DNA of 64,000 nucleotides from Parcubacteria group bacterium (GTDB lineage Bacteria; Patescibacteriota; Minisyncoccia; Moranbacterales; UBA2206), in the NCBI GenBank assembly GCA_041659505.1, contig JBAZYF010000002.1, positions 115,966 to 179,965 of the forward strand, written 5' to 3'. Of this stretch, positions 20,706 to 58,694 are shown piece after piece. Under the pieces are notes generated by a model. That model ran no database searches, was not told the DNA's origin, and worked only from the letters and a program-made list of their open reading frames with translations. Numbering within the stretch: position 1 is the first letter of the stretch; each line of letters opens with the position of its first letter. The position numbers and the translations under genes were made by a program.

Positions 20706-22174
20706 TTTTCTTTTTTCGTTTTGGAAAAATCAATCATCTTTCCCAGCCATTTCCAGCCGGCTACAAAGAGAAATTTCAAATCACCCCAATTGCGAATGGA
20801 TATTAATTTCCGCCAGATAAATTGCGGGCTGGCAAATGACTTATACAGCCCCTGCACCAGATCTTTTGCTTCAAGGGAGCTGATCTGCGCTTTCATCACC
20901 ATTTCCCGCTGGTCATAGTGGGCATAGTCTAGCGTGCGCAATAAATCATTTTCGGCGCAATATTTGTGGAGCGGCGTGCCTGGGTAGGGAATGACGATCG
21001 TGCCCTGCAAGGTGTCGACATAACCTTCTTTGAATAATTTTTTGGCGAGTGCAATTGTGCGCTCGGCCATCTCTTTCGTTTCCCAAGGATAACCGATCAT
21101 GGCTGTGATATGCGGTTCTAGTCCGGCCTCTTTGCACAGCCTGAGTCCCGGCTCAATTTCTTCCACTTTGAGATTTTTGTCGATCCGATCCAGCGTTTCT
21201 TGATTGGCCGATTCCAGTCCGAAAAGAATGAAGCGAAAGCCGGCTTTTTTCATCATAGCCCAAATTTTTGGATCGCGAATTCCTGTGATGCGCATATTGC
21301 AACTCATCGTAATTTTTTTATTGTACCCTCGCTCAATCATCCCGTTGCAAAAATCTTCCAGCCATTGCCCGATGGGAAGCGAACCGGAATCTTCCATAAT
21401 TTCCCGCACACCCAGTTTGATCAAATTTTCCACTTCAGCCAGCGCTTTTTGCGCTGACATCGTGCGAAAACTCTTGCCCGGAAAAAGCGTCGTCCAAGAA
21501 CAGAAAGTACAGCGCCCCCACCAACAATCCCGCCCGCTCATGAGGTATGCGCCAGGAGTATACTTGAAATTGCCATTTTTGTAGGCATACAGTTTCCATT
21601 TCGTCAGCTCACGATCGATGAGTGGCAAATCATTGAGGTTGTGCTTGGATAGATCGGCTGGTCCGGAATTAACAATTTTTTGCGCGCCGTCGCGAAACCA
21701 AAATCCCCCTTCTAATATCTCGCCATTTTTTAAATGATTCGCCAGATTCAAAAGCATAAAATCATAATCCCCGCTCACCAGCACAAAATCAACCAGCGAC
21801 TCGCGCAGAGACTCTTCCGGAAAAGCCGTCACATGATCGCCCATCAGGACTATTTTCGCCTTAGGCAATTTGGTTTTGAGCTTGGCAATGATCTCCCAAT
21901 GCATTTTCACCACTGGTGTTTTTGTCTCAAGGGCAATCAGATCCGGCGCCTCAGCAACTATTCTTTTTTCCCAAGCTTCATAATCCAAACCTTCCGCAAT
22001 GCCCTCGTCCCAAAAAACGTCATAGCCGTTCTTTTTGAGAAGAGACGCCGCATAAGCGGGAATGACGGGATAGATAAAGGTTGGGGTGCTAAACCACTGA
22101 AACTGACGATTTTGACCAAGACAAGCAACGCCCTTTCCTGATTTCAAGGGCGGATAAGAAATAGCGATTTTCAT
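20699..22174 (-). CDS. B12-binding radical SAM protein (class B radical SAM, probable methyltransferase-type)
   Basis: N-terminal cobalamin-binding Rossmann-like domain; CxxxCxxC cluster motif CWWGRCTFC. Confidence 0.8.
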   Translation of the reverse strand: MKIAISYPPLKSGKGVACLGQNRQFQWFSTPTFIYPVIPAYAASLLKKNGYDVFWDEGIAEGLDYEAWEKRIVAEAPDLIALETKTPVVKMHWEIIAKLKTKLPKAKIVLMGDHVTAFPEESLRESLVDFVLVSGDYDFMLLNLANHLKNGEILEGGFWFRDGAQKIVNSGPADLSKHNLNDLPLIDRELTKWKLYAYKNGNFKYTPGAYLMSGRDCWWGRCTFCSWTTLFPGKSFRTMSAQKALAEVENLIKLGVREIMEDSGSLPIGQWLEDFCNGMIERGYNKKITMSCNMRITGIRDPKIWAMMKKAGFRFILFGLESANQETLDRIDKNLKVEEIEPGLRLCKEAGLEPHITAMIGYPWETKEMAERTIALAKKLFKEGYVDTLQGTIVIPYPGTPLHKYCAENDLLRTLDYAHYDQREMVMKAQISSLEAKDLVQGLYKSFASPQFIWRKLISIRNWGDLKFLFVAGWKWLGKMIDFSKTKKENC

Positions 22175-22366: not shown

Positions 22367-23380
22367 CTAACGCATCTTGCTTTTAAGCTCTCGCGTGAAA
22401 AGAAAACCTTGCAAAAATCTTGCTCCGTAGACTAGATGTGTAAGAAAAACATACATCAGAGCATAGAGCGCTATCGGTAAATTTTTTTGACGACGCGTGA
22501 TATCAAAAAGGACAATGAGCATCGCCAGGCTATACATGATCCAGCCCAAAAGATAGAGAATTTCAAAAAAAACAAAAAAATGGCCAAGAATCAGTCCGAT
22601 AAAAACAAACAGAAAAAAAGCACTGGGGATGAAATAGCGGAATTTGAAGGAAGTTTTGGGATATTTTTTGGCAAAAAATCCGCGATGAATCCCATATCCT
22701 CCTATCTGTTTCAAGTGTCGCAAGAGCCCCTCGCGCCGATGATGCCAAACGATCACCGCTGGATCATAAAGAATCTTGTTATTTTCCTTGAGTTTATCAA
22801 TCACATCCAGACAAAATTTTGTGTCTTCCCCTGGCCAAAAATTACAATCAAAACCGCCTGCCTTGAGAAAGGCGCTCTTACGCACGGTCAGATTGACAGT
22901 CGGCCAGTCAGAAACTAGATGTTTTTCTCCCACTGGAACATAGCGCTCAGGAAAGCCGCCAGAAAGTTGACTGAGAAAGACCGCTCCGGAAACTTTTTGC
23001 AAAAAACTGTCCGATCCGGGAGTGATCGCCGGACCGCCGACAGCAGCGATACTTTCATCGGAAAAATCTTGATCTAAGATATTCAAAATGTCTTTACGCG
23101 GATAAGCATCATCGTCGATAAAAACTAAAAATTCACCCTGCGCATCGCGCACGGCCAAATTTCTTTTCACGGCCGGACCGCGACCACTGCCAATCTGCCT
23201 GGTTTTTGGCCAAGCTTCTGCCGTTTCCAGACCTTCGTCCGGATAAATAATAATTTCGTAGTCATCTCGCGAAATCTCCAGAATCTTCGGCACTGATTCG
23301 CGAATATAGTCGTTGACAACTTTAACCGGAATGATGAAACTGTATTTTATCAAATTAGCCATTTTTTGAGGTTTACGCAC
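22367..23380 (-). CDS. Glycosyltransferase family 2 with C-terminal TM helices
   Basis: FIIPVK...IDDDAYP DXD region; hydrophobic C-terminal third. Confidence 0.7.
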   Translation of the reverse strand: MRKPQKMANLIKYSFIIPVKVVNDYIRESVPKILEISRDDYEIIIYPDEGLETAEAWPKTRQIGSGRGPAVKRNLAVRDAQGEFLVFIDDDAYPRKDILNILDQDFSDESIAAVGGPAITPGSDSFLQKVSGAVFLSQLSGGFPERYVPVGEKHLVSDWPTVNLTVRKSAFLKAGGFDCNFWPGEDTKFCLDVIDKLKENNKILYDPAVIVWHHRREGLLRHLKQIGGYGIHRGFFAKKYPKTSFKFRYFIPSAFFLFVFIGLILGHFFVFFEILYLLGWIMYSLAMLIVLFDITRRQKNLPIALYALMYVFLTHLVYGARFLQGFLFTRELKSKMR

Positions 23381-23439: not shown

Positions 23440-25342
23440 TTATTTTTTCAAATACGCGAGATTCGCCAAAAGCAACTCCTTCCCTTCCGGAGTGACTATT
23501 TTGGCAGTGGCAGTTTCGAGGTGCTTTTCCAAAAGCGCGATCTCCAAACTGATTTGTCTCTCCAGTCCCGAAATCAGTGCTAAACGCAGTTTACTATTGA
23601 GCGCATAAGCGCAGTTTTCAATCCCCAAAAGGAGCTCTTGGGAAATCTTGAGACTCAGGAGATGGGCGGAAAGAAACTTTTTCTCTGTTTGAGTTTTGAT
23701 CAGTTTTTGCGCAAAATAGTAATCAATATTTTTTAGTATCGCTCCCGCATCGGTCACAACTTCCACCGAACGTTCCGCTGTTCCGACGTTCCCCGCGTCA
23801 TCTTTCGCCACGATTTTCAAACCGTGCGTTCCTGGTTTTTGCAAACGCAGATCAATTTCGTTTTTTGCCAAAATTGCATTATCCCAAAAAATTTCCGCCG
23901 TAATTTTGTCCGCTTGAGATTGATTATCGCTAAGTGAGTACTCAATTTTAAGCACCCGATCGTTGGGATATTTTTTATTTTCTTTTGGATTCTGAATTTC
24001 AACTGTCGGCGCTTCCCTGTCACTATTTTCATCAATCAGTTTTCCCTCTTTAATTTCAACTGTTTTTTCCTCCGTCTCCCCTGCCACAGCCGTGCCAAAA
24101 ATTTTTGCAGTTGATTCTTCCGCCACCCCGTCGCTACGCTCCGAAATCTTGGCTACCTCCACGCGGTAATCACCGCCATTTCCCGTCCCTTCGGTGATGA
24201 TTTGATATTCTCCGGTTGACACCGGATCAGGAATAGTGATAAATTCATTTTCAATTCCATTGTAGCCCGTATAATATGCTCCTTTGATCTGATTTATGTC
24301 TTCAAGCGGTCGGATCTTTTTCCCTGCCCAATGCAACCCATCTGGCGCGATGATTTGAACGTCGATGGGAGAATACACAGAAACAATTAAAAGATTTTTA
24401 ATTAATGAATCATCATTTTCTCCAGTTGGCCTAACTCCGGTAAGCAATTCGAGTATGTCTTTTTGCGCTTTTGTTGGAAGATCAACATGCGCAGCATTAA
24501 TTTCGACATATTCATCACTAGGTATATTTTCACTTTTGGCTGATTCGAGTGGAACGGTTCCGTCTCCAATGCCCTTTGTTAATCCTCTATCTCCAATAAG
24601 TGGAATCTCAAAACCAAGAGGGTAACCATGATCCCAATACTTGCCCATTTCTGGAGCGTCAATAACTTTGAATCCAACTATTGTGCCCTCATCACTTCCA
24701 GCTTTTCCAACTATTTTATCAAATTCGATATAATTTAATTTGCCTTTTTTCTCTGCACTGTTCAAGTTTTCTAAAAAAATATTCTCAGGATAGTCTAATG
24801 GGTAAATTTTATAGACGTCGTCATTCTCAACATCTTGCAAATAATTATACACTGGTAACAATTCTTGCAGTGAAGCGATTGGTCTTTGATGGATATAGTC
24901 AAAAAGATCGGCATACTCAGGATTTCTTGCTTCCTGCGCTTCTTGTGTCAATATATGTTTCGTATACATATCCGACAAATCCCAAAACCAGCCATCTCCA
25001 TCCCATTTCAAATATGCCCCCGGCGCCCCGTTCTGTGGTGTTCCAAGCGTAACTAGTTGATCAATATCATCAGCATAATAATCTGATTCTACATATTCGC
25101 GAGCCAGTAGTCCTCCCATTGAATGCGCCACGATGTCCACTTTTGGCCAATTATTTTGCGTTGTAATGTCTTGGATTTTTTGCGCCAGAAGTTTTGCATT
25201 TTCAATATTGCTATCGCGCCACTCATAAGGCAACTCAAATAAATCCCTATCTGGGACATACCCATTATCCACAAACTCCTTGTAGAGATTATCATAAGTA
25301 TGCAAAATCAGATCCATTCGCCATTCGCCATCTTTTTTTTTG
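23440..25342 (-). CDS. C-terminal part of secreted beta-helix/lipase fusion protein: alpha/beta-hydrolase (PGAP1/lipase-like, GHSMGG elbow) + Ig-like and helical C-terminal domains; frame-shifted relative to 25292..26191
   Basis: AHSMGG nucleophile elbow; sequence continuity with upstream ORF across A-homopolymer (…PVLLIPGILGSQKK | KDGEWRMDLILHTYDN…). Confidence 0.65.
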
Positions 25343-26191
25343 TGAACCCAAAATTCCAGGAATAAGCAGCACTGGATCTTGATATTTTTCCTCCGTGAGA
25401 TGATAGGAGCAGTCAATATTTTCATTGATTGCCTGGAATTCACCATCGCCAAGGTCAAGCACTTTTTCCGGACCAGTACTTTTTCCCCACCAATTGTAGC
25501 GAAAATCTGCCATTACTCCATCTTCACCCTTGGAACAAAACACGTCTCCGGTGGCATTGTAAGAAAAAAATGTTCGATTAACTTTCACATCTTCTCCTTT
25601 TTCCAGACTAGCCATTATACCCAGATTGTTATCATGGATACGACTTCCGGAAATTCTTAACCTTGAGCCATACCAAGCCATAATTGCCCCAGTTGGACTG
25701 TCGGCATAAACAGTACTAACAAATGGATTAAAAAACATCTGTGGCGTATAGCTTCCTCCACCACTAATATCAGCATTCATAATACTCGCTTCTCCGCCAT
25801 CTTCGATATTTATTGAATAAGCGAATCTAGGATTAGTCTCTTCCGTTTTCTGAAAGATAACAGGGTTTTTTTGTGTTCCCTTCACGAATAATTTTCCCGC
25901 CACGTTTAAAGAAGATCTTCTGTCAAATGTCACTTTCACGCCACCTTTAATCACAAGCGTTGCCCCAGCCTCAACAGACACTGTTCCTTCGATGAATTTG
26001 TCCGATGTCCATTCCACATAACCCTTGATATCATCCGGACTCTCCTCCTCTCCTCTAACAAAGTCTCTAACGTCATATTTTTTCAATCCGATATTTTCTT
26101 TCCCAAAAAACGCTACCTGAAATGGCGAAATTGGTGCTAAGCTTAAAATTAAAGTCAATAAAAAAATACTTATTACTCGTACCCTCTTCAT
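25292..26191 (-). CDS. N-terminal part of same protein: signal peptide + right-handed parallel beta-helix domain, ending in start of lipase domain (PVLLIPGILGS)
   Basis: Signal peptide MKRVRVISIFLLTLILSLA; beta-helix repeats; terminates 3 codons after homopolymer in wrong frame. Confidence 0.65.
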   Translation of the reverse strand: MKRVRVISIFLLTLILSLAPISPFQVAFFGKENIGLKKYDVRDFVRGEEESPDDIKGYVEWTSDKFIEGTVSVEAGATLVIKGGVKVTFDRRSSLNVAGKLFVKGTQKNPVIFQKTEETNPRFAYSINIEDGGEASIMNADISGGGSYTPQMFFNPFVSTVYADSPTGAIMAWYGSRLRISGSRIHDNNLGIMASLEKGEDVKVNRTFFSYNATGDVFCSKGEDGVMADFRYNWWGKSTGPEKVLDLGDGEFQAINENIDCSYHLTEEKYQDPVLLIPGILGSQKKRWRMANGSDFAYL

Positions 26192-27512: not shown

Positions 27513-28967
27513 CTAGTTTACCGCCAAACCGGAAGGTCCGGCTGGCGCAATCTCATCACCAAGCTCTGTGGAGAAAGGACTTTCATCCGCTCCAATATCC
27601 CAAGGAACGGTGCGCGTATCGCCGTCAATATCAACTGAAAAACTCAAATGAGCATCACTAGCCAAATTCGATCCGGCATCAATCGCTGCGGTGTCAGTGT
27701 CATCCAGATGAAAGTCTTCTGCATCCGTGGTCAAATCTGTGAAAGTTAATGTTTGTGAATCAATATTATGGCTGCCCGGAGTATCATCCAAATCGCTTAT
27801 ATTATACTCCGACGCTAAATCAAACGATCCGGTACCACCATAACCGATGCCACAGTTTTGCGCAATATTATTTTTAGCCACAATAGTGCCCAAATCGACT
27901 TGAAAACAAACATCCTCGCCACCCAGAGTTGCAAAGGCGCCATAAACGGTGTTGTTGTAGGCATAGAGCGTATTGGACTCACCAATCAGATAAATTCCGC
28001 CTTCACTGAAGCCGGAAATAATATTATTCCAAACCTTATACGTTCCCGTCTCAGTTCCCGTAGCCATGATGCCATAGCTGGTCCAGCCTTCCGCTGGTGC
28101 TTTTATGATGCAATTACTTATCCTGGTCAGTCCGGAAATGTTGGCCAGGGAAACACCAATCGTATTCCCAGTTCCCATATTATCATCCAAAATTTGCAAA
28201 CCATCCAGCCAGACATTTGGACCGCCAATATTGATCGGCGGGTCACTCTGATTATCCCCATCAACAGAATGAACTGCTAGCGTATATTTACCCGTCTCAC
28301 CCCAGACTCCTGCGTGCCGCTGACTTGTGCCTACTTGCGTCGTCAGGTTAGGTGTAAATATTTTAATGAAACGAGTATCATCTGTCGTCCAACCACCAAC
28401 CATCACGACTCCAGCGCTAACATCATCTTCTGCGTCACCATAACAAGCAATGTTCCATTGCAGATCGCCCGCCACCAAATCATTACCCAGATCATTGGCA
28501 GTAGCATCACCTCCAGCCGTCCAGTCATCAAAGTTAGCCACCGTCGAATCAAAAGCTAAACTTTCAATTCCTGCTTCAGCATCAACAAGTGATGTATAGG
28601 CACGATAAACACTAACAACCTGCGTAGCGCTGGCGCTATGCGGAGCCCCGCCAGTCGAAGACTGAACGGAAAAAACGGAGCTGGAAGTTCGACCAGTGAT
28701 AAAAGCCAAATAGACTGTTCCGGAAATATCATATTGCAAAACATCACCTACTCCAACATTATTCGGCATCGCATCAGAAAAAGTTGCCGTTGTGCCGGAA
28801 ATTGTCACTGTTTCGTGCGTTGTGTTTAGATTGGTAGTATTGGCTGGTCCGACCGAACGATAAATTTGCGTCGCTGCGCTTGCCGAAAAAGAAAAAGACA
28901 GACCGCCTAAAAGTAGAAAAGAAAAAAAACATAATTCTAGTACTTTTTTTTGTGTTTCTTTTTTCAT
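27513..28967 (-). CDS. Secreted right-handed beta-helix (pectate-lyase-like fold) protein
   Basis: Internal start [31 protein letters not shown] (signal peptide) preferred over track's upstream start; beta-helix repeats; C-terminal WDIGADE…PSGLAVN tail shared with 40282..41799. Confidence 0.7.
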
Positions 28968-29103
28968 CTTTTTTATAATTAAAAAGCTTAACTTATTTGA
29001 AGTAATTATACTCCATATTAGACCAAAATGGCAAGTAAAAATACAAAAGGGACTTTTCCGTTTCAGAAAAATCCCTTTTATCGTGTTGCAAAACAAACCA
29101 TCT

Positions 29104-29973
29104 TCATGGACAAGACGATGTGCCCACGTTAGACGCAAAGATTATCTTTTTTATCCTTAAGGATTCAAACAGCGGCAATCTTGACACATTTTTATATGAA
29201 TATGCATTGGCGCTGACAAATCCGATTACACTGCAATCAGGACTAAAATCAGCGCTAACGAGATCGATAACCAAATCTCGATTAAACGTGTGCCACTGAC
29301 CATCATTGAATAACCCCAACCCGAACGTTGCTATGGTCGCCGTGTGAGAATTAAGCTCGGGATCGATATATTTGTACTGCATCGTAGCGTTTACCGTGGA
29401 ATTATCAGGAAGTAAAACGGAAAGTATAATCGAGATATAGGGGAGATAGCTTCCCGTCCCTGCCGCTAAAACTTCCACGTACATCTGGGTATTTTTCAGG
29501 TCGAGTCCAGTCAAGCTAGTCTTATTTTGACTGGCTGAGGTGGCGGTACCGCTAGTGCCAAAAAGTACTTCTTCGACACCATCGAGTCCATCAATAAGAG
29601 CACTACCCCTGACTTTTGTCCAGTTGTCATGGGCACCATTGCCCTCGACAACATTAACAACCAATTCGGTAGAAAAAGCCGACTCAATATTATCACCATA
29701 AGCCGTAACGGCGAAATATTGGTTAATGCCCTCCTCAAATTCCATCCCGATATCCGCCAAGTCAATCATTGTGACATTCCCAACATCCACCGGTGGACCA
29801 TAGACGCCAGACTCCGTTCCGCGATAGAGCTTATAGCCCAATACGGCCGGATCATTGTTTGGACACCACGCCAATTTGACACTAGTCAAAATTGTGGCGC
29901 TAGCATTCACCGTCAGTATTGACAAAACTAAAAAAACGACCAAAGATCCAAAAAACCGATTTCTTTTCCTCAT
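29104..29973 (-). CDS. Secreted protein with N-terminal signal/anchor and fibronectin type III-like domain
   Basis: Signal peptide; FN3 pattern LAWCPNNDPAVLGYKLYRGTESGVYG…YFAVTAYGDNIESAFS. Confidence 0.6.
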   Translation of the reverse strand: MRKRNRFFGSLVVFLVLSILTVNASATILTSVKLAWCPNNDPAVLGYKLYRGTESGVYGPPVDVGNVTMIDLADIGMEFEEGINQYFAVTAYGDNIESAFSTELVVNVVEGNGAHDNWTKVRGSALIDGLDGVEEVLFGTSGTATSASQNKTSLTGLDLKNTQMYVEVLAAGTGSYLPYISIILSVLLPDNSTVNATMQYKYIDPELNSHTATIATFGLGLFNDGQWHTFNRDLVIDLVSADFSPDCSVIGFVSANAYSYKNVSRLPLFESLRIKKIIFASNVGTSSCP

Positions 29974-30156: not shown

Positions 30157-30654
30157 TTATTCAAATTTCACCCGCAATTTTTTTCCCAGATACCGCTCAT
30201 AGTTATCCGGGCTATTGATGTATTGAATGTCAAAATGATGGCTGATGCGGTAGCTGATGAAATAGGATTTCACTGGTGTATCGTCAATAATCACATCCGC
30301 CACCAGATGGAAAAATACCCCCAAAGCCAAGGCCAAAAATACAGTTTTGGCTAATTTACTCTTGAGCAAATAGACCAAGAGCAAGAAAATAAGCACATAT
30401 TCCCAACCATGAAAAAACACATAAATCTTGCCTGATTTCAGAAATTGGTAACCATTTTGGAAATATTCCCATTGCCAATTCCAGCCAAAAGCCAGGAAAT
30501 AGTCAATGAAATGATCCAGGTCAATCAGAAATCCACCCAAAAAACCGAATGAAAATGCCCAAAACGGCTTTTTCCAAATGCGCCACGCGATAAGACCAGC
30601 CAAGAGGCTAAAAAACAAATGGATCGAAAGATGCACCGGTAAAGATAAATTCAT
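30157..30654 (-). CDS. Integral membrane protein, possible membrane-bound metal-dependent hydrolase (DUF457/YdjM-like)
   Basis: 4-5 TM helices, conserved His/Asp in loops (DLDHFIDY, HGWEY); family call tentative. Confidence 0.45.
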   Translation of the reverse strand: MNLSLPVHLSIHLFFSLLAGLIAWRIWKKPFWAFSFGFLGGFLIDLDHFIDYFLAFGWNWQWEYFQNGYQFLKSGKIYVFFHGWEYVLIFLLLVYLLKSKLAKTVFLALALGVFFHLVADVIIDDTPVKSYFISYRISHHFDIQYINSPDNYERYLGKKLRVKFE

Positions 30655-30709: not shown

Positions 30710-32452
30710 ATGGCACTTAATTCCGACCAGAAAAAATTTATTAAAAAAAATTGGGAAACGCTTTCCTTGGAAGAAATGGCGGCCGATTTGAGTTTGCCGA
30801 AAAAAACTATCTTGAAATATCTCAAAAATCATCTGCCAGAAAAAAAATTCCGGAATTTATTCAGTAATAATCCAACTACCAAAGATACGCCTCTTTCAAA
30901 AACAAATGACGGCTTTGAACTGAAAACATTCCTTTTGGAAAATATCAACTATTTCATCCTGTTTTTTGTTCTGATTTTTATCAGCTATCTTAATTCTTTC
31001 GATAATGCCTTTGTTTCTGATGACATTCTTGGAACACAAAAAAATGCCGCTTTGTCCGACTGGAGCTATCTGCGCTATCTTGCCTCCTGGAGCTTCTTGC
31101 CACACTTCATCTTGGTTAAATTCGGACTAATTGCTCCTTTTTATTTTCGCGCCGTAAATATTTTTTTTCACCTTGGATCAACTTGCCTCATTTTTATCAT
31201 TCTCACTCTTCTGGCTAAAAACAAGCCACTCGCTCTTTTTACCGCCCTGCTGTTCGCCGTCCACCCGATTCTAACCGAATCAATTTCTTGGATCTCCGCT
31301 CGTCCCTATGGCCAATATGCCTTTTTCTTTCTCGCCTCATTTCTCCTATACTTGCTCTCTTTTCAATCGATAAAAAATTCAAAAAAACTGCTAGTCTATT
31401 CTGGCACACTTTTTTTCTTTGCGCTCGTTTCTTCGGAAAAAGCGGTCGCTCTTTTTGCCATTTTTCCGCTCTATGAATTGGCCTTTGGCAATCTGAAAAA
31501 AAATTGGAAAAAATTTTTACCCTTCCTTATTGCTTCTGTCATTTTTACTTCAATCTATCTAACCAGAACGAGTCAAAGATTCTCTGATTTGAACACGCAA
31601 TATTATGCAGATGCCAGCGGACTGTATAACCCACTGGTGCAAATCCCCGTGGCTATCAGTTCCTACCTTGGCCTCATTTTTTGGCCACAAGGTCTCACGC
31701 TCTATCACACAGAATTGACTTTTAACACAATCGGCTATCTCGCTTGCCTTTCTGTCTTTCTTCTTTTTTCCGGCCTCGCTTACTATGGTTGGAAAAAAAA
31801 TCGCTTTGTCTTTTTTTGGCTTTCATTTTTCTTCATCTCTCTCACTCCAACACTCACTCCGCTCAAAGTTTCTTGGATCGTCGCTGAACGCTACGCCTAC
31901 ATCGGAACACTGGGCATCCTCGCCACTTTCGCTTACTTTTTTACATGGCTCTGGGAAAAATTTCCCCAAAAAAAAGTTTGGCTCTCTGCAATTTTTGCGC
32001 TGATAATTTTGGCGCTCTCCATCCGCACGATCGTGCGCAATATTGACTGGGACAATGAGGATAATCTTTGGATTTCCACGGGAAAAACCTCTCCATCCGG
32101 ACACGTCATCTACAACAACCTCGGCGATGTTTATGCCCGCCGGAAAGATTATGACCGAGCAATTTTAGAATTTAAACGAGCCACCGAAATTAACCCCCGC
32201 TACGCCGATGCTTATCATAATCTAGCCAACACCTACCAAGCGATGGGAAAAATAGATGAGGCCATTGCCGGCTACCAAAAAGCGCTGGAACTAAATCCGG
32301 CACTTTGGCAATCAGCTCAAAATCTCGCTTCGATTTACTTCACGCGAGGTGAGTTTGGAAAAGCGCATGAAGCAATCAAAAAAGCGGTCGAAATTAGTCC
32401 GACCGACCAGAACTTGCAAGCAAATTTAAAGTTGATTGAAAGCAAGTTATGA
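30710..32452 (+). CDS. TMTC/PMT-like GT-C membrane glycosyltransferase with C-terminal TPR repeats (putative protein O-mannosyltransferase-like)
   Basis: Multi-TM N-region (~430 aa) followed by 3-4 TPR repeats (AYHNLANTYQAMGKIDEAIAGYQKALELNP). Confidence 0.65.
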   Translation: MALNSDQKKFIKKNWETLSLEEMAADLSLPKKTILKYLKNHLPEKKFRNLFSNNPTTKDTPLSKTNDGFELKTFLLENINYFILFFVLIFISYLNSFDNAFVSDDILGTQKNAALSDWSYLRYLASWSFLPHFILVKFGLIAPFYFRAVNIFFHLGSTCLIFIILTLLAKNKPLALFTALLFAVHPILTESISWISARPYGQYAFFFLASFLLYLLSFQSIKNSKKLLVYSGTLFFFALVSSEKAVALFAIFPLYELAFGNLKKNWKKFLPFLIASVIFTSIYLTRTSQRFSDLNTQYYADASGLYNPLVQIPVAISSYLGLIFWPQGLTLYHTELTFNTIGYLACLSVFLLFSGLAYYGWKKNRFVFFWLSFFFISLTPTLTPLKVSWIVAERYAYIGTLGILATFAYFFTWLWEKFPQKKVWLSAIFALIILALSIRTIVRNIDWDNEDNLWISTGKTSPSGHVIYNNLGDVYARRKDYDRAILEFKRATEINPRYADAYHNLANTYQAMGKIDEAIAGYQKALELNPALWQSAQNLASIYFTRGEFGKAHEAIKKAVEISPTDQNLQANLKLIESKL

Positions 32453-32481
32453 CAGACGTAAATCAAGGATCTTCTCGAAAA

Positions 32482-33417
32482 TTATTTCCGCTTCCTCACG
32501 ATATACATCGGCCGATTAGTCACTTCAGCGTGGATGTTGGCGATGTAGAGCGCAATAAGCCCAAGACAAACAAGTACGATGCCAATCAAAAACAGAATTA
32601 CGACCGCTAAAATTGCCGGGCCGGAGAAATAAAGATTATTGGTTATATAGCGGTTAATCATGATGAAAATTCCCAGAAGCCCGGAAAAAAATGTGATAAT
32701 AATCCCCAGATAGCCAGCCAGCTTCAGAGGAAACAAGCTGAAGGAAATCATGCTATTAAACGCTAGCCGGACCAATTTCCAAAAATTATAGGCCGGAACA
32801 CCATGGATCCGCTCGTTGGCTTCGAAATAGATATATTCACGCCGAAAACCGAGCCAATCGATCAGCGCGCGCGTCATGCGATTTTTTTCCGTGAGCCGAT
32901 TGAACTCATCAATCACGATGCGATCCAACAAGCGAAAATCAGTTGCGCGCGTCACAATTTCCATGTCTGATATGCGATTGATCATTTTATAAAACAGATA
33001 GGAACCCATTCTTTTTATTAATTTTTCCTTCTTACTTTTCTCTCGCACGCCAACGACAACCTCCGCGCCTTTTTCCCATTTCGCGATAAATTCAGGAATT
33101 TTTTCGATCGGATGCTGGAGATCTGCATCTAAAATTATACAAGCTTCTCCGCGACAGCTGTTGATTCCAGCTGTCACTGCGATTTCCTTGCCAAAATTGC
33201 GGGAAAAATCCAAAACATTTATCCGAGCATCTTTCTCGGCAATTTTTTCTAATTCCAAAATACTCTTGTCACAACTGCCGTCATTTACAAAAATAAGCTC
33301 CCAAATATAAGGAAGTCTGTCGAGTACCGTTTGAATTTTGGCATAAAAAAGCGGAACGTTTTTTTCTTCGTTATAAAGCGGAACAACAATAGAAATCATT
33401 TTTTTTCCTGGTTCCAT
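32482..33417 (-). CDS. Polyprenol-phosphate glycosyltransferase (GtrB/ArnC/DPM1-like GT2) with two C-terminal TM helices
   Basis: ISIVVPLYNEE…FVNDGSCD…ILDADLQHP motifs; start at MEPGKKM (33417) chosen to avoid overlap with upstream stop. Confidence 0.8.
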   Translation of the reverse strand: MEPGKKMISIVVPLYNEEKNVPLFYAKIQTVLDRLPYIWELIFVNDGSCDKSILELEKIAEKDARINVLDFSRNFGKEIAVTAGINSCRGEACIILDADLQHPIEKIPEFIAKWEKGAEVVVGVREKSKKEKLIKRMGSYLFYKMINRISDMEIVTRATDFRLLDRIVIDEFNRLTEKNRMTRALIDWLGFRREYIYFEANERIHGVPAYNFWKLVRLAFNSMISFSLFPLKLAGYLGIIITFFSGLLGIFIMINRYITNNLYFSGPAILAVVILFLIGIVLVCLGLIALYIANIHAEVTNRPMYIVRKRK

Positions 33418-33421
33418 ATAT

Positions 33422-34687
33422 TTATGCGGGCTCTTTAGTAAACGAGTTAAAGACAAAAGGCAGCGCGCTGAGCAACGCGACTGTTTGAGCAATAATGCCT
33501 ATGGCCAGTATAGCAGAAATCGTATGACCGAAAAAGAGCATCGCGCTGGCCGCCGAAACAGCCACAAAGAGCATTCCGTAAACCACCTTCACTCGTTGCA
33601 AGGAAAGCAAATATTGCAAAGTCAAGTTCACTAGAGAAAACAGCACCACCATAATCGCAAACCAGCCTAAATAAGCCGAAACCGCGTTATATTTCGCGCC
33701 AAAAAGCAAAGACAGAATCAATTTTGGCGCCATAAAATAGACTGCGATAGAAATGACAGACACGATAGTCATCAGAGTGAAGGCCTGCAGGAAAAGTTTT
33801 TTTGTGTTGCCATTCTTATGATTATGTTCCGCCGACATGGAAAAAAGCACGGAAGCAATCACGCCGGTCGCAAAAAAAATAATTTTGGAAACAATCGTGA
33901 GCGCTCCATATTGCCCCGCAGAAATATCGTCAAGATTATGTTTGGCCAGAACCATATCCAAATTACCCAAAGCATTGATCGCCAGATTACCGAGAAAAAA
34001 AGTCATCACCGTAGTTTTCATCGCTCCCAAATTGAGCTCACTGATTTCGTGCTCATCATTTTTTCCGGCCACAAAAATGAATTTAAGACAAATGAGCGCG
34101 ATAACATAGGTCGCGACAGCAGACAAGAAAAAACTGAACATCAATCCGTTAATTTTAAGTCCGATAGCGATAAAAATCAAAGCGGAAAAGAGCTTCAGAG
34201 CACCACCGGCAATCGCGGCCCAGCTTGATTCCTTGAATTTTTGCCAACCGGAAAGCATCCCGGAAGCCCCGGCAGAAAAAAGCGAAAGGAGCATCGAAGT
34301 CCAAACAATGATCAGTGGTAGTGTGCTTTCAATATTAAGGAATCGGCTGATAAGCGGAGTAAGGAGAATTGTCACGAGAAAAATCGGTACGCCATATTGC
34401 ACGACTTTTTTGTTGAAATAACGCAAAAGTTCATAACTCCTTTTTTTGTCATTTTGCGCTTTACACTGCGCGGCATATTTCGTCATCACCATGACAAGCG
34501 TCGCCGCGGGAACGGAGATGATCATCATCAGCGAAATGAGCGACTCCGTCTCGCCATAAACCGCCACGCTCACCATTCTTCCCACTACCAAGTGGAAAAT
34601 GTAATTGAGCACGTTATTCACCATACTGCCGGAAAACAGCACGAAGCTGTTCCAGGCAAAAGCGTTGTTACGAAATTTTTTGAGCAT
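33422..34687 (-). CDS. wzx: Oligosaccharide flippase (Wzx/MOP superfamily)
   Basis: ~12 predicted TM helices, 421 aa, typical polysaccharide-biosynthesis-protein pattern, adjacent to GtrB-like gene. Confidence 0.7.
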   Translation of the reverse strand: MLKKFRNNAFAWNSFVLFSGSMVNNVLNYIFHLVVGRMVSVAVYGETESLISLMMIISVPAATLVMVMTKYAAQCKAQNDKKRSYELLRYFNKKVVQYGVPIFLVTILLTPLISRFLNIESTLPLIIVWTSMLLSLFSAGASGMLSGWQKFKESSWAAIAGGALKLFSALIFIAIGLKINGLMFSFFLSAVATYVIALICLKFIFVAGKNDEHEISELNLGAMKTTVMTFFLGNLAINALGNLDMVLAKHNLDDISAGQYGALTIVSKIIFFATGVIASVLFSMSAEHNHKNGNTKKLFLQAFTLMTIVSVISIAVYFMAPKLILSLLFGAKYNAVSAYLGWFAIMVVLFSLVNLTLQYLLSLQRVKVVYGMLFVAVSAASAMLFFGHTISAILAIGIIAQTVALLSALPFVFNSFTKEPA

Positions 34688-34771: not shown

Positions 34772-35725
34772 TTATTTCACCTTGTAGTACTGTTTGTACC
34801 ACTCCACAAAATTAGCGATCCCCTTCTCAATTCTGGTCGTCGGCTTCCAACCCAGCTTTCGCAGTTTTTTAATATCGGCCACCGTTGAAGGTACATCGCC
34901 CGGTTGGATCGGCATCAAATTTTTCTTCGCAATCTTCCTCACATTTTTTTCAATCACTTCAATAAAACGCAAAAGGGTTTCTTCCTTGTCGCCACCAATA
35001 TTCATCACGCCGTAACCCGTACATTTGTCGAGCACAGTGAGCGTGCCGGACACAATGTCATCAACATAGGTAAAATTGCGACTCATTTTGCCATAATTAT
35101 ACACTTTAATCGGTTCGCCTTTGGTGATCGCATCTGTAAACAGGAACAATGCCATATCCGGCCGACCCCACGGGCCATAGACGGTAAAAAATCGGAGCGC
35201 CGTGATGTTAAGTCCGTAGATGTGGCTGTAGGTATGCGCAATGAGTTCGTCCGCTTTCTTGGAAGCGGCATAAGGAGAGATTGGCGTGTCCACCGGATCA
35301 GATTCGGAAAAAGGCACTTTTTTGTTGTTGCCATAAACCGAAGAGGATGAGGCAAAAACAAAATTTTTAATTTTATATTTAACCGCGGCTTCCAAAAGAT
35401 TAAGACTGCCCATAATATTCACATCCGCATATAGTTTTGGATTGAGCAGTGAATTGCGCACGCCGGCCATTGCCGCCAAATGAATCACTTTGTCCAATTT
35501 TTCTTTTTTGAATATCTTGTCGATCAATTTTTCATCTCGAATATCTCCACGATAAAGTTTAAATTTATACCCCTTAAGAAATTTTTTAATGCGCGCTTCT
35601 TTCAGCGATGGGTCATAATAATCATTGAAATTATCAATAATCACAACTTCATCGCCCCGATCGATCAGCGCCTTCGTGCATGCCGACCCAATAAACCCCG
35701 CCCCTCCGGTAATCAGTACCTTCAT
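34772..35725 (-). CDS. UDP-glucuronate 4-epimerase-like NAD-dependent epimerase (CapI/WbpP family)
   Basis: [14 protein letters not shown]…IDNFNDYYDPSLKEARI resembles UDP-GlcA 4-epimerase signature (NDYYDxxLK). Confidence 0.65.
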   Translation of the reverse strand: MKVLITGGAGFIGSACTKALIDRGDEVVIIDNFNDYYDPSLKEARIKKFLKGYKFKLYRGDIRDEKLIDKIFKKEKLDKVIHLAAMAGVRNSLLNPKLYADVNIMGSLNLLEAAVKYKIKNFVFASSSSVYGNNKKVPFSESDPVDTPISPYAASKKADELIAHTYSHIYGLNITALRFFTVYGPWGRPDMALFLFTDAITKGEPIKVYNYGKMSRNFTYVDDIVSGTLTVLDKCTGYGVMNIGGDKEETLLRFIEVIEKNVRKIAKKNLMPIQPGDVPSTVADIKKLRKLGWKPTTRIEKGIANFVEWYKQYYKVK

Positions 35726-35753: not shown

Positions 35754-36827
35754 TTACACATCTTCCATTTTTTTATACCACTCGGGCATCAGGTTAAATA
35801 TCTCTGCTTGACGCCTGACACCTTCTCGATAATCCATTTGCGGCTCATACCCTAATTGGGTTCTTGCCTTGGTAATGTCTGCACTAGTTGCCACATCCCC
35901 AGGATCCGCATCAACAATTTCATACTTTACCGATTCGCCAAGGGCGTCTCCAACTGCATCAAACCAGCTTTTTAGTGGAATTACGTCCGACGTCCCAATA
36001 TTATAGGCATTGTATCCAATATTTTTATCTAAACACAACAGAAGTCCATCCACCTCGTCATCAATATAAGTAAAATCCTTGGCTGTCTCCAATCCTTTGA
36101 TTCCATATACAGTCAGCGTTTTACTATTGTGTACATAATTAATAAGCCGTTGGATAAGCATGCCGAAAGGACGCTGTAAAGGGCCATAGATAGGGCCAAA
36201 AATTCGAGCAATAGCAATGTTCAGTCCAAAAAGCTTGAAAAACGCATGGCTCAGTACCTCAACCGCAGATTTTGTGGCTCCGTAAACTGACCATGGATAG
36301 GACACGCCTTCTTCTTCCTTGACCTTATGATCTTTTTGCCCATAGGCCGAAGCAGTAGAGGCAAACACAAATTGTTTGATTCCAAATTCTTTTGACAATT
36401 CCAACAAATTAACTGAACCATCAACATTCACCTGCGTATAGAGTCGGGGTTGTTTTGCTGAAAGTGGGACACCAGCCATAGCCGCCAGATGAATAATCGC
36501 GTCTGGCTTGTGCGTTTCGAATAGATTTCTAAGCTTGTCAAAATCAACAATATCCACTTCTTCAAAAACAAACTTTCCTGGCGTGGCATCTGTCTTGGGA
36601 TAATAGGTAGAAAGTTTTTCGTGCACAGGATTTATTTCTTCAACTTTTGTAAACTCAATAGGCTTATTGGCGGTGAGATTAATCAAGTCCAAATTAAACT
36701 CCTTGCAAACGCGAGGATAATATTCTTGAAAATTATCAATTGCAACGACATCATCGCCCCGACGAATAAGCGCCCGCGAGACATAGCTGCCAATAAACCC
36801 AGCCCCGCCTGTTACAAGTACTTTCAT
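35754..36827 (-). CDS. NAD-dependent epimerase/dehydratase (extended SDR), second paralogous nucleotide-sugar epimerase
   Basis: [15 protein letters not shown]…, YxxxK region (SVYGATKSA), 357 aa. Confidence 0.7.
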   Translation of the reverse strand: MKVLVTGGAGFIGSYVSRALIRRGDDVVAIDNFQEYYPRVCKEFNLDLINLTANKPIEFTKVEEINPVHEKLSTYYPKTDATPGKFVFEEVDIVDFDKLRNLFETHKPDAIIHLAAMAGVPLSAKQPRLYTQVNVDGSVNLLELSKEFGIKQFVFASTASAYGQKDHKVKEEEGVSYPWSVYGATKSAVEVLSHAFFKLFGLNIAIARIFGPIYGPLQRPFGMLIQRLINYVHNSKTLTVYGIKGLETAKDFTYIDDEVDGLLLCLDKNIGYNAYNIGTSDVIPLKSWFDAVGDALGESVKYEIVDADPGDVATSADITKARTQLGYEPQMDYREGVRRQAEIFNLMPEWYKKMEDV

Positions 36828-40281: not shown

Positions 40282-41799
40282 TCAGTCCACGAAAAGTCCA
40301 CTTGGTGATGCTGGCGGAGTGGCATCGCTTTCGTTAGAAACATATTCATAGGCGCCGATATCCCAATTAGCGCCTTGCGGACGGGAGACGCCAGCCTTAT
40401 CGACGATAAAATAGCCCGCCAGACTGACACCATGATCGATGGCGGGAGATCCGCCTTGCGGCTTGAAATTTCCATCAAGTAATGGGCTTCCTGTTCTACT
40501 ATTCAATTCGAATGTCTCATGCGCTACTTTCCAGGTTGGCAAATCCAACTGAGACCAACTTCCGTTAAGAAACGTCTCTCCCGAAGAGAATAAATTATAG
40601 TCAGATTCAGTGACACTACTAGCGCTGGAAAAGGGACCGATGGCTAGTCCGCCATTGTTAAATAAATTATTTTCAACAACCGCGTCGGTGACACCTCCCA
40701 ATTCTATGGCCGTCACTCCGTCAGCAGAAATGAAGGTATTATTGACAATCAACGCGCCGTCATCCTGCTTCAGATAAATCATGCCATTTGAACAGATTCC
40801 GGGGTTAACATCCATGACAAACAAGTTATTATAATATTTGGGACCAATAATGGGCCCTTCGCCAAATAAGGCTGTGGTTGTATTTGTGCCACATGCGCCG
40901 TGATAGTAATTATTGTAAATTTTAAGTCCGGTGACTTGAGTGTTTGTGTGTGCAGCAAAGACGTGGGTCAAATCAGTATGGATAGTTGGTGCGCCGCTCC
41001 ACTTTAGCCCCCGACTCAAGTCATTGTTATATATTTGAACATTTTCAATCGATGAATCCACATAGCCAGACCCGACGGTGATAGCTACCGCGCTGTCGGA
41101 AATAGCATTATTATAGACACTAACATTGGCAGAAACTCCGCCATACCAGGAAAAATATACCACTTTATTTCCGTCATGAACCACATTATCATGAAATGAG
41201 ATGTCATTAAGTACTCCGCTAAATTCAGCTGCCGTTCCATAGGCATTCTCCTCCGTTCCCTCTTCTCGGACATACATATTGGAAAATGTCATATTTTTAA
41301 CTTCCCAATGAGACGGATTACCGGAAACATTAAGAAAAGTAGAATTGACCGAATTGCCAAGACCAGTTCCATTATCCGTATTTTCAATAGTCCCATTTTC
41401 TCCACCATCAATAACTATGTAATTTTTCCCATCGGCATAAATGGACGACAACTCCGCCGTTCCCCAGGCGGCCTGGGACAATTTCGCTCCTGGATCGAAA
41501 AAGATAGTTATCACATTACCATCCGATCCACTAGCTTCCACTACCAGAGTTGATGAGATCGTTCCGCACAAATGTACTGTGTCCCCAGGACCGATTTTGC
41601 TTTCAGCTTTGGGATTAGACCAATTGCCAGATGTATTAAACCAACTGATCGCATGCGCATTAACACAATCTGCGCCAGTATCAAAGCCGGATGTATTTTG
41701 GGTGATATAAAAATCCGCCGCGTGAGAATTTTTCGCCCAGCCGAAAAAGCCGTAGAATATTATTATGACGAAAAAGATTTTTAGTTTGTGTTTATGCAT
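40282..41799 (-). CDS. Secreted right-handed beta-helix protein (paralog of 27513..28967)
   Basis: Signal peptide MHKHKLKIFFVIIIFYGFFGWAKNSHA; beta-helix repeats (NNTFISADGV…NNLFNNGG); tail WDIGAYEYV…PSGLFVD. Confidence 0.7.
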   Translation of the reverse strand: MHKHKLKIFFVIIIFYGFFGWAKNSHAADFYITQNTSGFDTGADCVNAHAISWFNTSGNWSNPKAESKIGPGDTVHLCGTISSTLVVEASGSDGNVITIFFDPGAKLSQAAWGTAELSSIYADGKNYIVIDGGENGTIENTDNGTGLGNSVNSTFLNVSGNPSHWEVKNMTFSNMYVREEGTEENAYGTAAEFSGVLNDISFHDNVVHDGNKVVYFSWYGGVSANVSVYNNAISDSAVAITVGSGYVDSSIENVQIYNNDLSRGLKWSGAPTIHTDLTHVFAAHTNTQVTGLKIYNNYYHGACGTNTTTALFGEGPIIGPKYYNNLFVMDVNPGICSNGMIYLKQDDGALIVNNTFISADGVTAIELGGVTDAVVENNLFNNGGLAIGPFSSASSVTESDYNLFSSGETFLNGSWSQLDLPTWKVAHETFELNSRTGSPLLDGNFKPQGGSPAIDHGVSLAGYFIVDKAGVSRPQGANWDIGAYEYVSNESDATPPASPSGLFVD

Positions 41800-41955: not shown

Positions 41956-43227
41956 CTAGCGCTCTAACAGCCACCTCCAAAGTGGAATGAATTGAATTTT
42001 TCTATCTTTATACACCTCCTCACCATCTTCATCCCAAGTTACGACAACGAGTTTGTTGCAATTAAGCTCCTTGCTTGATTTGACCAAAGCCGACAATTCT
42101 CTTTCTTTGGTTTCAATATTTTTCAAGTCGTAGCAAACCTGGATAAGCTCAGTTACTTTATTGTTTTTTCTGATCAGAAAATCCACTTCACCGCCATTTT
42201 CATTTATATAAAAATACGTCTCCTTATTTTTCATTTTCAAATCCAAAAAAACCAAATTTTCCAGCATCCGGCCTGAATTGGGAGAATTTTGAAAAGAAAT
42301 CGCATTTATCATGCCATTGTCGATGCAATAGATTTTTCTCGCACTGTTTAGCTGTTGTTTTAATTTGAAAGAAAAGGGCAAAAGTTCAAAGATTAAATAG
42401 GCTTCCTCTAAATAATTGACATAATTTTTCACCGTGTGTGAACTTTTTATTTCAAAAACTTTTTGCAACTTGCGATAGGTAAAGCGAGAACCAAAATTGG
42501 AAAAAAGATAAACGGCCAGTTCTTTCAATTCTTTCCCAAATCTGACTTTATGGCGAGGCATGATATCGCGACTGATTATTTTATCATACAGATCTCGCAA
42601 ATATTGCTTTTTATTTTCAACAGAAAACAGCTCTGGGAAACCGCCTTGTTGCAGATATTCTTCCAGCGTTTTTTTGACAGTGGCTCGATTTTTCGTCAAA
42701 AACAAGTCTGTCCCTGAAAATTGTAGGCCTTTTCTTTTCAGAAATTCCCCAAATGAAAACGGAAATAGTTCAAGAGAAACATGCCTGCCAGTTAAATGTG
42801 TTGCCAATTCTTGACTGAGCAGTTTGGCATTGCTACCAGTGATCACTAAATTATATCCGGAACGCTTCAGGCGATTGGCAAACAATTCCCAACCTTCGAT
42901 ATTTTGCACTTCATCCAAAAGCAGATATTTCACGTTCGGAGTTATTTCATTTAGCACTTCCAAGAAATCGTTTAAATCTTCCGTCTTGGCTCCGATAAAT
43001 CTTTCATCATCAAAATTAACATACCCATATTCCTTGCCCCTAAGAATTTGATGTGCTAAAAAAGACTTCCCGCACCTACGGACTCCAATGAGCACCTTGA
43101 CTAAATTGTTTTTTAGCGCCTTTCTGACTTCGACCTCCTGATCTCGCTGGATGGTTTTAGTTTCTAGCAATTCGGCTATTTCCATCTTTTGCTCCAAAAG
43201 GACACTTTTAAGCTGTTGCTTTTCCAT
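41956..43227 (-). CDS. AAA+ ATPase (AAA_14 + DUF4143, COG1373 family)
   Basis: Walker A GVRRCGKS, Walker B LLLDEVQ, C-terminal DUF4143-like region. Confidence 0.75.
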   Translation of the reverse strand: MEKQQLKSVLLEQKMEIAELLETKTIQRDQEVEVRKALKNNLVKVLIGVRRCGKSFLAHQILRGKEYGYVNFDDERFIGAKTEDLNDFLEVLNEITPNVKYLLLDEVQNIEGWELFANRLKRSGYNLVITGSNAKLLSQELATHLTGRHVSLELFPFSFGEFLKRKGLQFSGTDLFLTKNRATVKKTLEEYLQQGGFPELFSVENKKQYLRDLYDKIISRDIMPRHKVRFGKELKELAVYLFSNFGSRFTYRKLQKVFEIKSSHTVKNYVNYLEEAYLIFELLPFSFKLKQQLNSARKIYCIDNGMINAISFQNSPNSGRMLENLVFLDLKMKNKETYFYINENGGEVDFLIRKNNKVTELIQVCYDLKNIETKERELSALVKSSKELNCNKLVVVTWDEDGEEVYKDRKIQFIPLWRWLLER

Positions 43228-52896: not shown

Positions 52897-52900
52897 TTTT

Positions 52901-56438: not shown

Positions 56439-56477
56439 AGACCAGCATTACTGATTAACTTTCTGATTTTTTATTTT

Positions 56478-56510
56478 CACGACTTGCGCATTTGCCCGAG
56501 TCAGCCGTAC
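56478..56510 (+). repeat. Copy F of dispersed palindromic element (CACGACTTGCGCATTTGCCCGAGTCAGCCGTAC)
   Basis: 34/36 identical to copy A including TTATTTTCAC lead-in. Confidence 0.7.
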
Positions 56511-56558
56511 TTTTTTTAGAAAATACAGTTGTGAGGTTAAATGTGCAACTTCTAAATT

Positions 56559-58253: not shown

Positions 58254-58267
58254 AGGACAAATTGACT

Positions 58268-58678: not shown

Positions 58679-58694
58679 TGTTTGTTTTCAAGAT

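Follow-up and report, generated by a model that had tools for sequence, protein, structure and literature searches.

A stretch of 64,000 nucleotides (nt) from a Parcubacteria group bacterium (contig JBAZYF010000002.1, positions 115,966 to 179,965 of the forward strand; hereafter, the window) carries three neighboring genes whose products may cooperate in transmembrane glycosylation: a multispanning GT-C glycosyltransferase related to human TMTC1-4, a GtrB-family synthase of a lipid-linked sugar, and a candidate Wzx-type flippase. A first-pass annotation had taken this trio for a compact, divergently arranged module following the logic of protein O-mannosylation. Open reading frame (ORF) calls, Pfam, and NCBIfam place and type the three ORFs as that annotation had done, but the locus does not amount to a compact conserved module, nor does it provide evidence of O-mannosylation. 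The trio consists of the following genes, with lengths in amino acids (aa):

30710..32452, plus strand: TMTC-like GT-C glycosyltransferase, 580 aa, with a putative cytoplasmic N-terminal helical domain, a catalytic domain of about 11 transmembrane (TM) helices, and a putative extracytoplasmic C-terminal tetratricopeptide repeat (TPR) domain
32482..33417, minus strand: GtrB-family polyprenyl-phosphate glycosyltransferase, 311 aa from ATG, with a GT-A domain and a C-terminal TM hairpin
33422..34687, minus strand: Wzx/MOP-type flippase candidate, 421 aa, with at least 10 hydrophobic segments and a Polysacc_synt match

The GT-C gene is convergent with, not divergent from, the other two: its stop codon and that of gtrB lie 29 nt apart, 3' end to 3' end, and the stop codon of wzx lies 4 nt ahead of the gtrB start codon. 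The true divergent neighbor of the GT-C gene, 55 nt distant, encodes a 165-aa membrane protein.

An identical 580-aa protein is listed at NCBI under the name 'tetratricopeptide repeat protein', from a Parcubacteria-group metagenome-assembled genome, and its relatives occur mostly in Candidatus Moranbacteria and other Patescibacteria (the Candidate Phyla Radiation [CPR]). Pfam and NCBIfam recognize the TPRs alone (TPR_1, 1e-24, in three stretches of aa 465-575) and find nothing on the N-terminal 460 residues, which hold the TM domain; a profile search of this domain against PDB sequences also returned no match. AlphaFold2 modeled the full-length protein with a mean confidence (pLDDT) of 83 and aa 1-460 with one of 76. 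Foldseek searches with the full-length model were swamped by TPR proteins and were repeated with aa 1-460 modeled separately. The top 27 matches of this second model in the PDB are all GT-C enzymes, including STT3, AglB, PglB, Pmt4, Pmt1-2, ArnT, DPY19, ALG3, PimE, and EmbA, with probabilities of about 1 and TM-scores of 0.40-0.48 that differ only marginally between GT-C families; the lowest E-values (7e-4 to 8e-3) belong to STT3, AglB, and PglB. Profile-profile comparison with the TM-domain sequences of human TMTC1-4, taken from supplementary data of Eisenhaber et al. 2021 (PMC7801869), aligned the CPR GT-C family over 358 columns, i.e., residues 82-440 and the whole membrane domain (hhalign, Prob 99.6, E=2.1e-24, 26% identity). 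Against TMTC3 alone, the family profile scored E=1.6e-14, and the window protein itself scored 2e-11 by BLASTP. The family is a large one: at E<=1e-30 the TM-domain profile reaches 2,562 clusters, and 77,260 once the threshold is relaxed to E<=1e-3.

Fold and profile homology thus identify the 580-aa protein as a GT-C enzyme specifically homologous to human TMTC1-4, in agreement with the first-pass typing. It is, judged by sequence, a divergent member of the TMTC lineage, which we call 'TMTC-like' rather than a member of GT105 because two defining motifs (M2 and M5) and the DUF1736 model find no counterpart in it. The additional closeness to PMT-type enzymes that had been proposed stops at the level of the fold (Pmt4 and Pmt1-2); no PMT or MIR domain matches, and membership of PMT/GT39 is ruled out. 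A particular closeness to ArnT is likewise ruled out, as the same profile compared with E. coli ArnT for control gave E=0.62. The O-mannosylation analogy had been considered vulnerable to missing catalytic-loop signatures or to a grouping with O-antigen ligases or polymerases; neither was observed. The loop 1 DD proved invariant, and an O-antigen ligase or polymerase identity is ruled out by the GT-C fold and the lack of a Wzy_C match; no WaaL, Wzy, O-antigen ligase, or polymerase structure stands among the Foldseek matches.

The following parts of the protein support or extend this comparison:

30710..30865, plus strand: aa 1-52, lysine-rich four-helix domain, predicted to be cytoplasmic (AlphaFold2 pLDDT 85-88)
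31019..31024, plus strand: D104-D105, the putative catalytic DD of the first extracytoplasmic loop and TMTC motif M1; aligns with TMTC1 D52-D53 (role according to PMC7801869)
31886..31900, plus strand: E393-R394-Y395-A396-Y397, the ERxxY of TMTC motif M7, in the loop that leads into the final pair of TM helices
32102..32446, plus strand: 3.5 TPRs (seven helices), aa 465-579 (Pfam TPR_1; AlphaFold2 pLDDT >90; PDB TPR matches)

Across 40 homologues, S103-D104-D105, just past the first TM helix, is invariant, as are H154, H185-P186, E190, K244, E256, R290, W325-P326, E335, and E393-R394-Y395-x-Y397. When the CPR GT-C and TMTC sequences are merged into one alignment, 25 columns (24 with the initiator Met set aside) carry a single residue throughout both groups, among them D104/D105, N150, H154, F182-A183, H185-P186, E190, R290, P326, E393-R394, and Y397. 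The TMTC family is defined by seven motifs, of which M1 is the DD, M2 (SHKSYRP) a proposed mannose contact, and M7 (ERxxY) a proposed phosphate contact (PMC7801869). The ERxxY residues of the window protein align with TMTC1 E403, R404, and Y407. M2 and M5 fall into gaps, loops 1 and 4 being shorter than in TMTCs: the merged alignment opens a 19-residue gap in the CPR family where TMTCs have NDFWG...SHKSYRP in loop 1, and the 9-residue DW segment of M5, between TM7 and TM8, is also absent from the GT-C, with the flanking NP and P..L conserved. At M4 (KE(T/Q)xxT, loop 3), S242-E243-K244-A245 aligns to KE(T/Q)G with the order of K and E swapped; K244 is invariant and E243 nearly so. DUF1736 matches neither the window protein nor 10 family members, even at E<=10. 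The order of ERxxY loop, two TM helices, and TPRs is common to both families, and this layout would place the 3.5 TPRs on the noncytoplasmic side. The N-terminal aa 1-52 domain, which precedes TM1, has no TMTC counterpart and no significant Pfam match; M1, L3, Q7, K8, and I11 are invariant within it. It occurs in roughly half of the family, with profile matches that begin at residue 1 in some cases and near residue 70 in the others.

The GT2 enzyme encoded at 32482..33417 (Pfam Glycos_transf_2, 1e-28) matches the crystal structure of Synechocystis GtrB over its full length (PDB 5ekp, 2e-70, aa 8-308), and ArnC with 6e-40 in the PDB and 4e-42 by BLASTP against the E. coli protein. Its best NCBIfam match is PgfS (3e-65), followed by ArnC (1e-43); it does not qualify as a PgfS equivalog because its 220 bits lie below the family cutoff of 500. 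By these matches, it is a genuine GtrB-family lipid-monophosphate sugar synthase, not one of the DPM1/Ppm1 type. No other GT2 enzyme of the window gave a score against synthases of lipid-phosphate sugars, leaving GtrB as the sole GT2 of its type there and no DPM1/Ppm1-type mannose donor synthase among the others. The ORF runs on to a TTG at 33492, beyond the chosen ATG, which is backed by an 82%-identical orthologue aligning from residue 1.

The neighboring 421-aa protein matches Polysacc_synt (PF01943, 4e-10, aa 13-282) and has no PDB or NCBIfam relative; it is, by family, a Wzx/MOP-type transporter, as previously annotated. Among the domain models expected for the trio, those for TPR, Glycos_transf_2, and Polysacc_synt were found, and PMT_2 and DUF1736 were not found in the window GT-C. 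A terminator-like hairpin (32385..32405, minus strand; an 8-bp stem and then a T-run) lies 77 nt beyond the gtrB stop codon, inside the final stretch of the GT-C coding sequence, and could mark the end of the wzx-gtrB transcript; the signal from the terminator scan is no more than suggestive, and the promoter scan did not rise above background (14 found versus 9.9±3.3 expected). Two SDR genes follow on the same strand:

34772..35725, minus strand: SDR1, UDP-glucuronate (UDP-GlcA)-4-epimerase-like SDR nucleotide-sugar 4-epimerase (PDB matches)
35754..36827, minus strand: SDR2, second divergent SDR epimerase/dehydratase with an insertion near the N terminus (Pfam Epimerase, 9e-48)

SDR1 is closest to PDB 5u4q (3e-103), followed by the Bacillus cereus UDP-GlcA 4-epimerase (6zl6/6zld, 3e-50) and MoeE5 (3e-40), which makes the 'UDP-GlcA 4-epimerase-like' label given to the next gene a reasonable one. 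According to its PDB matches, SDR2 is a divergent paralogue.

Three further genes of the window recur in the genomic surroundings of related proteins:

30157..30654, minus strand: 165-aa membrane protein, 3-4 TM helices, with the His/Asp motifs DLDHF, FHGWE, and FHLVAD; weakly YdjM-like; divergent neighbor of the GT-C gene
22367..23380, minus strand: GT2 with a C-terminal TM hairpin (GT2-TM; Pfam, NCBIfam)
20699..22174, minus strand: B12-binding radical SAM enzyme (Pfam; best NCBIfam match HpnJ, 159 bits against a cutoff of 578)

A scan of one genome per species recovered 80 loci with relatives of the GT-C TM domain, the flanks of which were searched with the window proteins; neighbors within 6 kb of the GT-C gene were counted at the 36 loci that extend at least 5 kb to both sides. 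The commonest were as follows:

GT2-TM (22367..23380 type): 22 of 36 loci, 20 of them downstream
B12-radical SAM enzyme (20699..22174 type): 18 of 36 loci, 15 of them downstream
GT2 resembling the GtrB catalytic domain: 18 of 36 loci, all 18 downstream
Wzx-like gene: 17 of 36 loci, all 17 downstream

Individual Wzx-like and GtrB-domain-like neighbors among the matches listed lie on the strand opposite to the GT-C gene. The radical SAM gene stands directly tail-to-tail with the GT-C gene (<300 bp) in about 20 of all related loci; in the window, the pair of GT2-TM and radical SAM genes lies 7-10 kb upstream of it. These most regular partners of the GT-C family had been overlooked in the first-pass annotation. 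In other lineages, a soluble GT2 of 245-269 aa, whose best, weak matches are ArnC, PpgS, and PgfS, takes the place of GtrB beside Wzx. The 165-aa membrane protein neighbors the GT-C gene in 14 related loci and is linked to both GT-C and GtrB. In Moranbacteria loci without it, a 268-271-aa GT2 stands upstream of the GT-C gene (L009, 9151..9963; L012, 8985..9788), with TIGR04283, an 'arsenosugar biosynthesis' glycosyltransferase, as its best NCBIfam match (88-94 bits, below cutoff). Around gtrB itself, a block of DUF4012-GT4-SDR1-Wzx-GtrB(-GT2-TM-radical SAM) is conserved: wzx adjoins gtrB in the orthologous loci L004, L006, L007, L008, L022, L084, and L087, the SDR1 orthologue adjoins wzx in L004, L007, L083, L084, and L087, and SDR2 directly precedes gtrB in L085. 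The three functions of the trio do recur around the GT-C family; these exact genes are not fixed.

The trio lies in a single glycan island of about 45 kb (approximately 1.6 to 50 kb of the window) that runs almost entirely on the minus strand, with wzx in its long minus-strand operon and the GT-C gene as the only clear plus-strand gene within the array. Besides at least eight GT2 and at least five GT4 glycosyltransferases, the island specifies six SDR sugar-nucleotide enzymes (one of them a GDP-mannose 4,6-dehydratase), three methyltransferases, an acetyltransferase, an AsnB-type amidotransferase, the B12-radical SAM enzyme, a DUF4012 protein, and secreted beta-helix and choice-of-anchor-Q proteins. 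Nearby secreted beta-helix/FN3 proteins had been put forward as possible substrates. Three beta-helix proteins with signal peptides are indeed present (25292..26191, 27513..29138, and 40282..41799), and no FN3 domain was detected in the window proteins scanned. Two of the beta-helix proteins (27513..29138 and 40282..41799, both minus strand) share a similar C-terminal stretch, 'WDIGA-E ... P-GPSGL-V-N/D', and apparently start at internal Met codons followed by signal peptides; that at 40282..41799 also matches a choice-of-anchor Q domain.

Two polytopic membrane proteins of the island belong to no Pfam or NCBIfam family: one of 601 aa with about 13 TM helices (43417..45222, plus strand) and one of 883 aa with about 11 TM helices and a large C-terminal domain (1672..4323, minus strand). 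They could be extra transferases of the GT-C class or provide the polymerase that the island lacks; for the protein at 43417..45222, hhalign against the TMTC-like profile (E=0.15) ruled out a paralogue of the GT-C. Genes for an AlbA_2/Schlafen protein with HATPase_c_4 and HTH domains (9869..11281, minus strand) and an AAA_14/DUF4143 ATPase (41956..43227, minus strand) interrupt the island, consistent with a mosaic, often rearranged region. An RF1-PrmC pair lies at 51832..53773, and the right end of the window (55413..62730, minus strand) holds cell wall genes for a WecA/MraY-family phosphotransferase scoring higher as WecA than as MraY, a GT2 of 564 aa flanked by TM segments, a Mur ligase, and a class B penicillin-binding protein.

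That the trio works as one multicomponent ('three-component') transmembrane glycosylation pathway within this surface-glycan island is, in our judgment, an evenly balanced proposition. SDR1 (34772..35725) would supply a UDP-sugar, possibly 4-epimerized, from which GtrB (32482..33417) would load a single sugar onto polyprenyl phosphate at the cytoplasmic face. The Wzx-type protein (33422..34687) would carry the lipid-linked sugar to the outer face, where the GT-C (30710..32452) would move it to an extracytoplasmic acceptor by means of its DD loop and its phosphate-binding ERxxY loop, with the C-terminal TPR domain holding the acceptor near the active site. By TMTC homology, the acceptor would most likely be Ser/Thr of a secreted or surface protein; this homology and the TPR domain are the two features that favor a protein in this role. 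What the analysis establishes is the family of each protein, the conserved catalytic residues, the order of the genes, and the retention of the SDR1-Wzx-GtrB block across loci; the supply of this GT-C by GtrB, the flipping of a monosaccharide lipid by Wzx, the sugar, and the acceptor are inferred. Mannose, as in the O-mannosylation originally envisaged, is unlikely as the sugar because the donor synthase is GtrB-type, the mannose-contact motif of TMTCs (SHKSYRP) is deleted, and a UDP-GlcA-type epimerase is the conserved companion of Wzx-GtrB. Three-component or multicomponent transmembrane glycosylation is a known scheme (Rismondo et al. 2021, PMC8035078; Kelly et al. 2024, PMC11127046). A Wzx-type flippase has a precedent in GacK within GacI/GacJ/GacK/GacL (PMC8035078, PMC11127046), and protein O-glycosylation has precedents in GtrB plus PgtC2 and PgfS plus PgfM1 (PMC12041528).

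Several observations weigh against such cooperation. The GT-C gene lies on the opposite strand and is not cotranscribed with gtrB and wzx. True GtrB orthologues (>=300 bits) occur near the GT-C gene in only 5 of the 36 loci, downstream in all 5, and a reverse metagenome scan with GtrB recovered 19 loci, none of which contains the GT-C. At the closest orthologous GT-C locus (71% identity), neither gtrB nor wzx stands beside the GT-C gene; RNase III, NusB, and L32 are encoded downstream, and the radical SAM enzyme and GT2-TM upstream. In L085 and L086, gtrB is directly followed by the gene for the 165-aa protein (2037..2534 and 1314..1826, respectively) with no GT-C between them, and therefore the window GT-C gene looks to have been inserted, in opposite orientation, between these two. 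TPR domains are also found in polysaccharide export proteins, and Wzx proteins classically flip undecaprenyl diphosphate (Und-PP)-linked oligosaccharides, units that the 13 or more further glycosyltransferases of the window would be able to build. The product of GtrB could in reality serve the membrane proteins at 43417..45222 and 1672..4323. The juxtaposition of the trio is loose and specific to this genome, not that of a fixed operon, and its description as a compact module does not survive these counts.

Chance juxtaposition in a mosaic island is the first alternative to be weighed, and we consider it to be a realistic but distinctly less probable explanation than cooperation. Under it, Wzx would flip an Und-PP repeat unit, GtrB would serve another membrane transferase (e.g., 43417..45222 or 1672..4323), and the partners of the GT-C would instead be GT2-TM (22367..23380) and the radical SAM enzyme (20699..22174). 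These two are the commonest neighbors of the GT-C gene (22/36 and 18/36 loci), the latter usually tail-to-tail; all 19 loci found through GtrB carry its block without the GT-C, and the island is rich in GT2, GT4, SDR, and modifying enzymes, with a gene content around gtrB that is fluid between loci. However, in the 5 loci with both genes, GtrB-Wzx share a minus-strand array ending at the GT-C gene, and elsewhere a small GT2 resembling lipid-phosphate synthases occupies the same place beside Wzx and GT-C. Furthermore, the window encodes no other recognizable lipid-monophosphate sugar synthase, yet a GT-C needs a lipid-linked donor; to our knowledge, this applies to every characterized GT-C.

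Similarly tentative is a variant in which the trio cooperates as proposed and the acceptor is a cell wall glycopolymer, polysaccharide or teichoic acid-like, instead of a protein, as in the systems of GacL, CsdB/D/F, YfhO, or ArnT. This variant is compatible with the pathway outlined above and draws on the location of the genes in a polysaccharide-type locus with Wzx, as well as on the fact that most characterized bacterial three-component systems decorate glycopolymers, GacI/K/L even with a Wzx-type flippase. PMT_2, the family of GacL and ArnT, is weakly matched by 5 of 10 GT-C relatives (best 7e-6), though not by the window protein. On the other hand, the TM domain is specifically TMTC-like (E=2e-24) in a test that left E. 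coli ArnT undetected, TMTCs and PMTs glycosylate proteins, and a C-terminal TPR array is TMTC architecture.

The regular neighbors of the GT-C family invite a broader and, on our estimate, improbable conjecture, namely, a CPR-wide cassette of TMTC-like GT-C, B12-dependent HpnJ-like radical SAM enzyme, GT2-TM, and Wzx. The membrane GT2 would make a lipid-linked sugar that the radical SAM enzyme would remodel, by methylation or ring rearrangement, before it is flipped and transferred to surface proteins; GtrB and the 4-epimerase would then form an accessory second donor branch in Moranbacteria. If true, this would amount to a kind of protein O-glycosylation not described before, related on the bacterial side to the animal TMTC pathway and possibly ancestral to it. 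An oligosaccharyltransferase- or ligase-like GT-C that transfers a Wzx-flipped Und-PP-oligosaccharide en bloc to protein or peptidoglycan, with GtrB unrelated, would accord with the lowest Foldseek E-values (STT3, AglB, and PglB), with the Wzx-like gene as the most regular transporter neighbor, and with the window's lack of a detectable Wzy_C-type ligase or polymerase, but is very improbable given that the GT-C has neither the WWDxG motif nor an STT3 Pfam match, that TM-scores (0.40-0.48) barely separate the GT-C families, and that its TMTC homologues are monosaccharide transferases using lipid-monophosphate donors.

The proposed three-gene pathway compares with known systems as follows. Metazoan TMTC1-4 (CAZy GT105), the O-mannosyltransferases of cadherins and protocadherins, align with the window GT-C over the whole ~11-TM domain and share with it the loop 1 DD, P..F(R/H)..N...H, LFAVHPI.TE, the NP motif, ERxxY, and the C-terminal TPRs on a side predicted to be noncytoplasmic. 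The window GT-C differs in lacking the 19-residue SHKSYRP insert of loop 1, the DW insert of loop 4, and a detectable DUF1736, and in possessing an additional cytoplasmic N-terminal domain; its host is a CPR bacterium, and its donor would probably come from a synthase of the GtrB type, not of the DPM1 type. The TPR region of TMTCs is also longer than the 3.5 repeats seen here. Full-length prokaryotic TMTC homologues with TPRs exist and are 'typically not yet well characterized' (Eisenhaber et al., PMC7801869).

The GacI/GacJ/GacK/GacL system, which adds the GlcNAc side chain to the group A carbohydrate of Streptococcus pyogenes, combines a GT-A synthase, a Wzx-type flippase, and an outside-acting GT-C in the same manner and is the only well-described one with a Wzx-type flippase in this role (PMC8035078, PMC11127046). 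Unlike the window GT-C, which is TMTC-like, encoded on the opposite strand, and not stably linked, GacL is a PMT_2-type GT-C without TPRs that modifies polyrhamnose, GacI needs the small protein GacJ, and the gac genes form one cluster. The streptococcal protein O-glycosylation systems GtrB plus PgtC2 and PgfS/PgfE/PgfM1/PgfM2 resemble the locus in their GtrB/PgfS-type synthase, a clustered 4-epimerase gene (pgfE), and a GT-C, which in their case glycosylates Ser/Thr of extracytoplasmic proteins; however, the streptococcal GT-Cs belong to the YfhO family, not the TMTC-like one, and have no TPRs. GtrA/GtrB/GtrV and ArnC/ArnE-F/ArnT of Gram-negative bacteria take the same three biochemical steps, and the window GT2 aligns over its full length with GtrB and ArnC, whereas their flippases are small GtrA- or SMR-type proteins and not Wzx, their acceptors are O antigen or lipid A, and ArnT has no detectable profile similarity to the window GT-C. 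In Rhizobium, the UDP-GlcA 4-epimerase LpsL yields UDP-GalA, from which the ArnC/GtrB-like synthase RgtE makes lipid-GalA for the GT-C enzymes RgtA-D, a scheme that we take to match the SDR1-GtrB pairing of the window; RgtA-D, which carry no TPRs, modify lipopolysaccharide core and lipid A.

The first-pass annotation had described such systems as poorly characterized in bacteria. As regards the logic of the system, this does not hold, since the three-gene scheme is textbook bacterial glycobiology, and the specific coupling of this trio is weak. We found no characterized prokaryotic TMTC homologue in the literature searched, no paper on GT-C or TMTC-like glycosylation in CPR/Patescibacteria, and nothing on CPR in combination with O-mannosyltransferase or with radical SAM plus TPR. 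The locus and its relatives give a bacterial TMTC homologue a concrete genomic context, with a GtrB- or PpgS-type synthase, Wzx, a 4-epimerase, and, as a more regular companion, a radical SAM enzyme, and they turn the function and donor of bacterial TMTCs into a testable question and a useful lead. The lead also bears on surface construction in CPR bacteria, which are believed to rely on host-cell contact and whose genomes are small yet rich in such genes.

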